A DNA stretch of 60,762 nt from Candidatus Omnitrophota bacterium (GTDB taxonomy: Bacteria; Omnitrophota; Gorgyraeia; Duberdicusellales; 4484-171). Position numbers: made by a program. Shown piece by piece: positions 30,001-33,000 of this stretch. The stretch spans positions 368,960-429,721 of the forward strand of contig PMCS01000029.1 in assembly GCA_003154195.1 (NCBI GenBank), written 5' to 3'. Each line of letters opens with the position of its first letter. Position 1 is the stretch's first letter.

Positions 30001-33000
30001 CGGAGGGTATAATGTGGGTAGTATTCGAAAGTAAGAAAAAACAATATTTAGCGAAAAAGGACGAAGTTTTAAAAGTAGAGCGCTTGGAGCAAAAAGAAGG
30101 CGAGATTATTATCGATAAGGTTCTTCTTCTGGCCGATGACGATAAAATATCCGTAGGCGCTCCTTACTTGGATAATGTTAAGGTGAAAGCAGTGATCCAG
30201 GGCGAGAAAAAGGATGATAAGGTTTTATCTTATAAATTCCGCCGGCGTAAAAAATCGCGCCGTATTCGCGGCCATCGCCAGATTCACACGGTTATTAAAA
30301 TCGCCGAGATAATCCAGTAAGATATATTTCGATTGGCAAATAAATAAAACGGCGTTATCATTATGGTAACGCCGTTTTTATTTTCTGCTTCGCAGAAAAT
30401 AAAAATATCCGCTTATGCGGACAAAGACAAAGCAAATCATATTTTTTCTGGTAGAATGAAGGGTGGCGATATGAAAATAATCAGGTCTAGAATAGTAAAT
30501 TTAAGGGAAAGTTTGCTCGCCAAAAGTTTCCAACTTTTGGCGAAGTCTCGCTTTGGCGGAAAAACCGCAGGGTTTCGAATAGATATTTTTTTGCGGAGCA
30601 AAAAATTATGATTGTAGACTACGCGAAAATCCATGTTAAGGCAGGTTCCGGCGGCAAAGGCGCTAACACTAAGTTGATGCTTTCCGTGCGCCGGGTTATC
30701 GGCGGCGGCGGCGACGGCGGCAATGGCGGCGACGTTATTCTGGAAGTCAGCCCGCACCTTTATGACCTTAACAAATTTAAAGAAAAAAAGAAATTTATCG
30801 CCCAGGATGGTTTTCCCGGCAAAGATAATAATCGCCGGGGTAAAAACGGCGAAGATACAGTTATTGGCTTTCCAATCGGTACGGTGGTATGGGATGAGAA
30901 TGAAGCAATGCTGGTGGAATTAAAAGAACCCGGGCAAAGATTTGTCGTTTGCCGCGGCGGCAAAGGCGGCGAAGGCAATTATAAGAAATTCTACACATTG
31001 CCGCCGCATCCCGGCGAAGGAAGGGATATTATTCTTGATTACCGGGTATTGGCCGATATCGCGGTCATCGGTTTCGCCAACAGCGGAAAGACTACGCTGG
31101 TCAATGCTTTAACGGGAAGAAATTTTAAGGTTGCGGATTATCCGTTTACCACGACCTCGTGCTATTGGGCGCCGGCAGTTATCGGCGATAAAAAAATAAC
31201 CGTTATCGATATGCCGCCGATTAAAAAGAATTCCTTCGCGCGCGGTTACGATACCAGTTTATTGCGCCAGCTTACCCGGCCGCGGATTTTCCTGCTTTTG
31301 AGCGAAGACCCCGTGAATTGCCTGGCTGAGTATAAGGAATTTATCGAAGAAATCAAGCATGTCGATACTTCGCTCCTGGAAGGTAAAAAAGTTTTTTATC
31401 TTCTTACTAAAACTGATAAAATAGATAAAGATAATCCGCATAAAACTACGGATTATCTTTATAAACAAACCCGCCAGGGGCGGGCTTGCGGGAAAACAAA
31501 ACTACAAGTAGGAGAACAACCAGCGGATGATTCTAAGATAAAAATATCTAAAATTAAAGGAATTATACCTATATCGGTGCATAGCGGCATGGGGGTAGAA
31601 AAGTTAAAGAAGAAAATAGCGGCTTGTTTGTAAAGAATACACTGTTTTTATCCGCGAAGCGGATGGCAGTTATTTTTTGCGCAGCAAAAAATAATATGAA
31701 AAAAATCGTAGTAAAAGTAGGTTCAAGCATTATTGCACCCGGCGGCGGCATCGACTTGGTTTTGATCTCCGCTTTGGCCAAGGATATCCTTGAGGCTCAA
31801 AAACAGGGGGCTAAGGTTATCCTGGTTTCCAGCGGCGCGATTGCCTGCGGAGCGAGCAAGCTCGGCCTGGCGAAAAAGCCGTCAGATACACATACCTTGA
31901 TGGCGCTGGCTTCTCTGGGACAGATCATCCTGATGGATGCTTACGTGAAAGCGTTCGCCGGGCATAATAAATCCTGCGCTCAGATTCTTCTCAGCTGGGA
32001 TGATTTTGACAGCCGCAAACGTTTCCTCAACGCCAGAAAAACCATCGATAAACTGCTGGAGATGGATGTGGTTCCGGTCATTAACGAAAACGATGCGGTC
32101 AGCGACGATGAAATAAAATTCGGCGATAATGACCGGCTTAGCGCGCTTGTCGGCGACGTAGTCGGCGCCGAGATGCTTATTATTCTTTCCGATATTCCGG
32201 GTTTGATGGATGAGGCCGGCAAAGTGATAGAAGTTGTCCCAAAGATTGACTCAGAAATTTATAAACTGGTGAGGAGTAAAAACGGCAAATTTACCCCGTT
32301 AGAGAAAGCCGCCGACTTTAGTCGGCGGTTATCCAGCGATAAAGCTGGCGGTGGTTTAATGCCACCGTCAGCGCAGACCGTTAGAGAACGGAGTTCTCTA
32401 ACGGGGTTTACTTCCGGCGGAATGAATACAAAGCTGCAGGCGGCGGAAATTGCCGTTTCCAGCGGCATTAAAATGGTTATCGCCGATGGAAAAGATAAAA
32501 TGATTATTTCTCGTATCGCCGCAGGCGAAGCCTGCGGCACGGCTTTTTTGCCGCAAACGAAAATAAAGACGGCAAAAAAGCGCTGGATTGCTTTCAGCAA
32601 AAAAGCTAAGGGGAAAATCCACATTGACGATGGCGCCAAAGATGCGGTTATCAACCGGGGCAAAAGTTTGCTTGGCGTAGGGATTACCAAAGTCGAAGGG
32701 GAGTTTAAGAAAAAAGATTCGGTATGCGTTGTTGATAGCCGGGGAAATATTATCGGCTGTGGCCTGGTCAATTACTCTTACGAAGAATTAACCGGCAACA
32801 GCCGCAAGAAATTAGAAAAAGAAGTGATTCATCGGAATAATTTTGTTAAAACTTTATGAATAAATACGTAGAAAAGTTAGTTAAGGAAGCTAAGGCAACC
32901 AGCTATCTTCTAAATAATTTAGATACTTCAACTAAAACCGCTGCGCTTTTGAGGATGGCGGATTATTTGTTGGAAGATTCAAATTTCGTTTTACGGGAAA

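Follow-up and report, generated by a model that had tools for sequence, protein, structure and literature searches.

Background

The closest described counterparts of a bacterium without bL27 are the E. coli rpmA deletion and tail-truncation mutants (PMC4647459; PMC12871816), whose ribosomes, like those predicted for the Gorgyraeia lineages described here, lack either bL27 or its HKK tail. In the available text of PMC12871816, a 2026 paper, bL27 is described as universally conserved and its tail as nearly invariant, which the authors attribute to a gating role of the tail towards tmRNA that protects from tmRNA-SmpB; E. coli without bL27 is reported there to lose viability 10,000-fold, and deletion of ssrA to rescue it partly, by 100-fold. 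According to the available part of PMC4647459, L27-less E. coli ribosomes form peptide bonds at a normal rate, and the main effects fall on assembly and subunit association. The E. coli rpmA mutant is sick and tmRNA-sensitive, whereas the bL27-less and tail-less lineages are natural and old and keep tmRNA-SmpB.

The archaeal and eukaryotic large subunit also works without bL27, as that of the order Duberdicusellales (phylum Omnitrophota) studied here would; in the archaeal and eukaryotic subunit, eL21 occupies the site of the bL27 body. A loop of uL16/L10e fills the place of the tail, as described in the available part of PMC4647459. Archaea lack SmpB (0/4 controls), whereas the order keeps SmpB and has neither a uL16 loop insertion nor eL21. 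Ribosomal protein losses in small-genome bacteria resemble that of the order in that a gene is absent across a clade and 23S domain V carries no deletion. The proteins frequently lost there do not include bL27; the order, by contrast, is without bL27 and, among the ribosomal proteins tested, keeps all others but uL30. In the available portions of the respective surveys, L27 is rarely or seldom lost among COGs (10.1101/2021.01.31.429008) and is not among the proteins often lost in tiny genomes (PMC7782861) or in CPR (PMC9297842). CPR/Patescibacteria share with the order the losses of der and obgE (kept in 38% and 60% of genomes) but, unlike it, keep rpmA (492/505 genomes; PMC12641178); the available text of that study includes one Omnitrophota genome only, for which few factors are noted, without analysis. 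A complete-genome study of the phylum, with 12 complete genomes from the order, makes no mention of L27 in its available text (10.64898/2026.06.07.730766), and our literature search, with subscription journals outside its coverage, found no report of lineage-wide bL27 loss. As far as the literature searched goes, such a loss is new, and it is larger than first described.

The rplU–obgE locus

The window is the whole stretch of DNA analysed, 60,762 nucleotides of contig PMCS01000029.1 (assembly GCA_003154195.1). In canonical relatives rpmA sits between rplU and obgE, and obgE then follows rpmA in 30/30 loci. The corresponding features of the window are as follows.

29955..29983, + strand: candidate sigma-70-like promoter 5' of rplU, by consensus match alone
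30012..30320, + strand: rplU, ribosomal protein bL21, 102 aa (PF00829, E 4.4e-25)
30321..30607, unstranded: 287-nt gap, the place of rpmA in canonical relatives, with stacked hairpins and repeats and without a bL27 remnant
30346..30378, + strand: terminator-like hairpin 3' of rplU
30363..30611, + strand: 82-aa ORF across the gap hairpins, without a family and without a relative in the fetched loci
30503..30570, unstranded: palindromic intergenic repeat of ~65 nt, with copies on contigs C29, C8, C31, C22 and C7 at 92-95% identity
30587..30605, unstranded: T-run/A-run palindrome touching the obgE start, its motif repeated before proB at 31673-31691
30608..31633, + strand: obgE, degenerate (PF01018, E 2e-34; below the NCBIfam Obg cut-off), with the loop-1 basic motif altered and the G3 motif broken
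31208..31219, + strand: ObgE G3 position, residues 201-204, DMPP (DIPG in E. coli ObgE)
31696..32859, + strand: proB, which adjoins rplU in genomes with obgE deleted

The gap folds into stacked hairpins (z -6.2); members of its palindrome family match the window 12 times where 0.14 would be expected, some of these matches being both strands of one site. Searching the six frames of the gap with a broad bL27 profile gave at most 2.6 bits. An earlier note on this DNA had described the gene called in the gap (g02014) as overlapping intergenic repeats, and this 82-aa ORF does lie over the hairpins and the ~65-nt repeat. Pfam and NCBIfam assigned it to no family. We rejected it as a replacement gene, given that it has no family and no relatives and is built on repeats; it is likely not a gene. 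Within proB, an in-frame insertion of about 37 residues (window 32294-32407) resembles a palindromic repeat.

Absence of bL27 across the order

PF01016 gave no match over cut-off in the genome of the window (G000), and a profile of divergent bL27 reached a best E of 2. With the gap free of bL27, this bears out the earlier note's statement that rpmA is missing both between rplU and obgE and from the rest of the genome. Across the order, PF01016 matched 1/85 genomes, while rplU was found in 74/85 and uL16 in 19/19 tested. The single match lies on a 3,424-nt contig of genome G065 that the earlier note had already thought foreign: clustering at 90% identity groups its bL27 with sequences that, where named, are Atribacterota/Caldatribacteriota, and the ObgE on the contig shares 56% identity with E. 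coli ObgE but 30% with that of its genus mates. By these sequence affinities the contig is an Atribacterota-type contaminant, which leaves native bL27 at 0/84.

The earlier note had also relied on the adjacency of rplU to obgE or proB. The adjacency itself is real: the Pfam matches of rplU and obgE lie <200 nt apart in 52/57 order genomes with both on one contig, several with stop/start overlap. It is no proof of loss on its own, because relatives that carry a relocated, tail-less bL27 show it too (rplU stands directly before obgE in both such genomes checked, L168 and L169). We therefore searched with a profile, A1, that combines canonical and tail-less bL27 forms. The profile is sensitive, picking up a tail-less bL27 in G138 (E 9e-31) that Pfam missed. 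Run on the 66 most complete of the 85 order genomes, it returned no native copy, its matches being confined to the contaminant and one due to chance in a frame of 1,526 aa; in six frames its best E was 3.2 in G000 and 1.5 in the single-contig genome G016. By profile A1, then, no diverged or relocated bL27 homologue is apparent at the sequence level, and the order-wide loss holds under the more sensitive search. All three families of the order (f1, f2 and f3), which together form one clade (support 100) spanning 46 genera and genomes of up to 2.5 Mb, are without bL27. We consider it highly probable that the gene has truly been lost in the order.

Two further leads were set aside. Part of the tail-less clade carries bL27 just before glmS; at that site G000 has a 241-aa membrane protein. 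Single-contig genomes could not be treated as closed ones in the case of G016, which itself lacks tuf, uS4, uS7, uS11 and uS12. A search of 1.84 billion proteins, a phage search and a scan of genome contigs yielded nothing further.

A bL27 gene left on unbinned contigs would give the same picture. Near-complete MAGs often lack ribosomal protein genes, according to the available text of PMC9723686, a relocated gene could drop out separately from its former neighbours, and bL27 was likewise not matched in three genomes of other classes that are 87% complete. Against such an artefact, native bL27 is found in 0/84 order genomes and rplU in 73/84 of the same set, and relocated tail-less copies were recovered in 39/39 genomes of family f15, so relocation does not hide the gene. 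We regard an assembly or binning artefact as exceedingly improbable.

Tail-less and absent bL27 elsewhere in the class

PF01016 matched 230 of the 251 genomes sampled from the phylum. Within the same class as the order the scores were bimodal: 71 of the 159 matches, from 14 families, had E-values of 2.5e-11 to 2e-3, and the others 7e-24 or better. The weak-scoring genes have good ribosome-binding sites. The N-terminal AHKK...NGRDS tail was present in 10/10 canonical rows of the alignment and in 0/27 divergent ones. A model of the tail-less protein (pLDDT 85) had as its top Foldseek matches ribosome-structure chains of bL27 size (E 9e-6, TM about 0.7); against TIGR00062 it scored E 3e-6, below cut-off. 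None of 30 loci has the tail-less gene adjoining rplU or obgE. These weak matches are real bL27 genes, tail-less and relocated, in 14 families. The relocated genes (L033-L062) often stand just before glmS; one of them is labelled Candidatus Zapsychrus exili, and one copy of this form is annotated as hypothetical. In family f4 the tail has been shortened separately, to MAHM followed by NGRD (2/2).

The earlier note's statement that other Omnitrophota keep bL27 did not stand. Neither PF01016 nor profile A1 found bL27 in family f22 (0/6) or in the lone f31 genome (0/1). We placed these lineages with a tree of 22 concatenated proteins (LG+G4; 61 rows), with AU tests on 18 of the 61 rows. The tree puts f22 and f31 inside the tail-less clade (support 99) and the order in a clade of its own (100), and f22 has the 23S changes of the tail-less clade at 2466/2484 and 2517/2567. 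One origin for the losses in the order and in f22 was rejected (p-AU 0.002); a single group of the order and the tail-less clade was not (p-AU 0.07). On this sequence evidence, the f22 family has lost bL27 independently of the order. In the best tree the sister of the order is f14, with canonical rpmA in place, a placement driven by two compositionally odd rows, so that the gene lost by the order may have been either canonical or tail-less.

The 23S rRNA of 11/11 tail-less genomes (L183-L212) carries changes at 2263/2277 and 2466/2484, most also at 2330 and 2385. Presumably these fall near the bL27 binding region, and it is possible that they co-evolved with the altered bL27.

The rest of the ribosome

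The genome of the window has all ribosomal proteins tested except bL27 and uL30, by E. coli queries, Pfam and neighbourhood (a set without uS2 and bS1). The spc cluster is without uL30 in 61/61 genomes of the phylum examined (L105-L164). Over 23S positions of about 2235-2620, with H38 and H78 left out, no indel was tied to bL27 loss among 30 genomes; this tally counts the copy from G052, which resembles family f4 and is probably mis-binned. The 23S matches are split near 2500 and 2600 in G222, G199, G281, G287, G248, G016 and G028, and in G229, G207, G003 and G054, suggesting putative domain V introns in these genomes.

The bL27 site could be filled, either by a copy diverged beyond recognition or by a small basic protein of other origin. 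The first idea has a precedent in the related clade, where bL27 is sharply diverged and relocated (Pfam E up to 2e-3), and the severe E. coli phenotype suggests compensation. Candidates of the second kind exist: small basic proteins without a family are common to G000 and G016, including one of 65 aa whose look-alike clusters are mostly from Omnitrophota. The searches speak against both. Profile A1 found nothing native in the 66 genomes or in six frames of G000 and G016, and 0/17 scanned candidates, out of 333 small ORFs common to the two genomes, resembled bL27. eL21 was found in 0/5 genomes, no uL16 loop insertion was seen in the order, and the 27 proteins found of the S10, spc and alpha clusters have no order-specific extension. 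An archaeal-type substitution, by uL16 loop or eL21, was accordingly rejected, and a replacement of any of these kinds seems unlikely to us. Residues of uL16 common to the order and the tail-less clade occupy 5/134 columns (3.7%), against 63/4025 (1.6%) overall; uS5 reaches 5.7%, so the uL16 value is not exceptional and was taken as ancestry.

Five of the 17 scanned small ORFs were without a family, one of which was later named by NCBIfam as a Chlam_Ver small basic protein. A conserved basic protein of 55-65 aa without a family (L255:7619-7813; G000:C34:29911-30078) has look-alike clusters mostly from Omnitrophota.

tmRNA and SmpB

SmpB is present in 8/10 order genomes sampled, G000 among them, and in 6/6 genomes of f22. 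tmRNA was found in G000 and in 10/10 other genomes tested, six of those without bL27, and in G000 and 6/6 other bL27-less genomes it is a one-piece molecule with a normal acceptor stem. Co-loss of tmRNA or SmpB with bL27 was rejected, both being kept.

Under the gatekeeper model of bL27, weakened or altered trans-translation might have permitted the loss. The 100-fold rescue of E. coli without bL27 by ssrA deletion, reported in the available part of PMC12871816, fits this proposal, and an ArfB-like GGQ protein in G000 and G016 offers a possible alternative rescue route; the retention of SmpB and of a normal one-piece tmRNA in bL27-less genomes runs counter to it, and we hold it very improbable. 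E. coli without bL27 suffers partly via tmRNA, yet the order keeps both tmRNA and SmpB; given the severity of the E. coli phenotype, the analogy argues that something may compensate for the missing protein. The G000 tmRNA (C13:83544-83968) is long, at 425 nt, and its predicted tag has 33 residues; G254 and G141 have long tags too.

Der

The earlier note had bL27 lost together with the assembly GTPase Der. The absence of Der from the order is secure: its KH-like domain was found in 0/85 genomes, and TIGR03594 gave no match over cut-off in G000. A specific co-loss does not hold, because Der is missing far beyond the order. The domain was found in 0/18 tail-less genomes and in 0/5 of the bL27-less f22/f31 genomes. 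Among 38 genomes with canonical or near-canonical bL27, Der is present in 21 and absent in 17, in line with the note's remark that it is patchy outside the order. By these distributions the loss of Der is wider than that of bL27 and appears older, and Der is not a specific partner of it. Three GTPases of 429-463 aa in G075, G005 and G072 were rejected as Der, having one G domain each; their motifs we take to be HydF-like.

The pairing in the earlier note implies that bL27 and Der went together through mutual dependence in 50S assembly. EngA acts at the peptidyl-transferase centre (PTC) in late assembly, according to the available text of 10.64898/2026.02.15.706057, and Der is absent from every bL27-less or tail-less genome tested, so that its loss may have been permissive for the loss of bL27. 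Mutual dependence is harder to square with the 17 canonical or near-canonical genomes without Der, or with CPR, where der is kept in 38% of genomes and rpmA in 492/505 in the available part of PMC12641178. We judge it quite improbable.

Decay and deletion of ObgE

ObgE decay and repeated deletion at the same locus is a new addition to the earlier note. Against NCBIfam Obg (TIGR02729), the ObgE of G000 scores 191.8 bits, with a cut-off of 280.25. Reading the G3 motif in 30 order loci gave two intact DxPG motifs (both in f2), 26 with the glycine replaced (f1 and f3) and two that were unreadable. The glycine is thus replaced in 26/28 readable copies in the order and kept in 34/36 readable copies outside it. 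By P-loop GTPase chemistry, replacement of the G3 glycine is predicted to abolish GTP hydrolysis. Two copies, from genus g34, are without the G1 glycine as well. The loop-1 basic residues, altered in G000, touch the PTC in E. coli, as reported in the available part of PMC4028186. Loop 3 is short in every Omnitrophota copy aligned, hence not order-specific.

In other members the gene is gone. PF01018 matched 60/85 order genomes. Of the genomes with rplU, 16 have no PF01018 match: 15 of these, spread over 12 genera, carry proB as the first conserved gene after rplU on that contig, and the remaining one has a contig that breaks off too soon. All 15 deletions at the locus are in f1. Deletion likely happened more than once, because some congeners of obgE-less genomes keep obgE (g14, g34). 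From its sequence, ObgE is predicted to be inactive in most order genomes or is deleted. Its decay and the loss of bL27 are not tightly coupled, because f22, without bL27, and the tail-less clade keep ObgE with an intact G3.

Among five genomes tested for other late-assembly GTPases, RbgA was over cut-off in 0/5 and YsxC in 1/5. In G013 (95% complete) and G072 (94% complete), no bL27, Der, ObgE, RbgA or YsxC was found. An ObgE query gave no YchF-like match in G000 and G016. E. coli queries gave no rnc, rimM, rsgA, rlmE, yhbY, rnpA or yceD in the same two genomes, where divergence is possible.

A proposed stepwise erosion of 50S maturation

The reading we favour, and consider probable, is that the order has no bL27 gene, having lost it by gradual, tolerated erosion of 50S maturation, and that its ribosomes work with the bL27 site empty; the empty site we infer from a replacement not being found. 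Early in the class, selection on the late 50S maturation module would have become relaxed, with the cells tolerating assembly that is slower or less accurate. Der, missing from related clades as well, would have been the first to go; bL27 would have followed at the base of the order, where the gene was likely deleted in the common ancestor, and ObgE decay would have come last. This order of events is read from a tree (LG+G4) in which two rows have odd composition and, for Der, from one f14 genome. The stepwise pattern is seen in ObgE, which is intact in the earliest-branching f2 and has its G3 glycine replaced in f3 and f1. Elsewhere in the class, the same relaxation may have shortened the bL27 tail or removed it, and in one branch it may have removed the gene entirely. 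Being non-catalytic, bL27 would serve assembly, subunit joining and tmRNA gating, a cost that slow-growing, small-genome cells could bear. The available text of 10.64898/2026.02.15.706057 describes YihA, EngA and ObgE as successive placeholders in 50S maturation. With somewhat less than even confidence we propose that some members, such as G013 and G072, have a 50S subunit without a protein tail at the PTC that matures without Der, ObgE, YihA/YsxC and RbgA while tmRNA rescue is running; loss within an ordinary phylum would have given rise to an active-site neighbourhood made of RNA alone that matures by itself.

The role of bL27 is a long-open question, and the class offers a natural series in which the tail is full, shortened or missing and the protein twice absent. 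With SmpB in all four bL27 states and tmRNA in every genome tested, the series allows a direct test of the gatekeeper model. Genomes without Der in which ObgE has decayed or been deleted show that 50S assembly with few GTPases, so far reported for CPR and interpreted there as ancient, can also arise secondarily. It is likely that these cells assemble and operate ribosomes lacking parts considered indispensable. The findings are relevant to the design of minimal ribosomes and to completeness scores based on marker genes in this phylum.

Other translation and targeting factors

Two further observations concern factors outside the locus. A gene of the SRP54 family (Ffh or FtsY) over cut-off was missing from four of five genomes (G000, G075, G225, G141 and G124), and G124 has one only; the observation extends to G016, and the signal recognition particle may have been lost across much of the class. 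G000 has four EF-G-like genes (on C8, C7, C30 and C4), one of which occupies a frame of 1,158 aa (in G016, 1,038 aa) and may contain an insertion.
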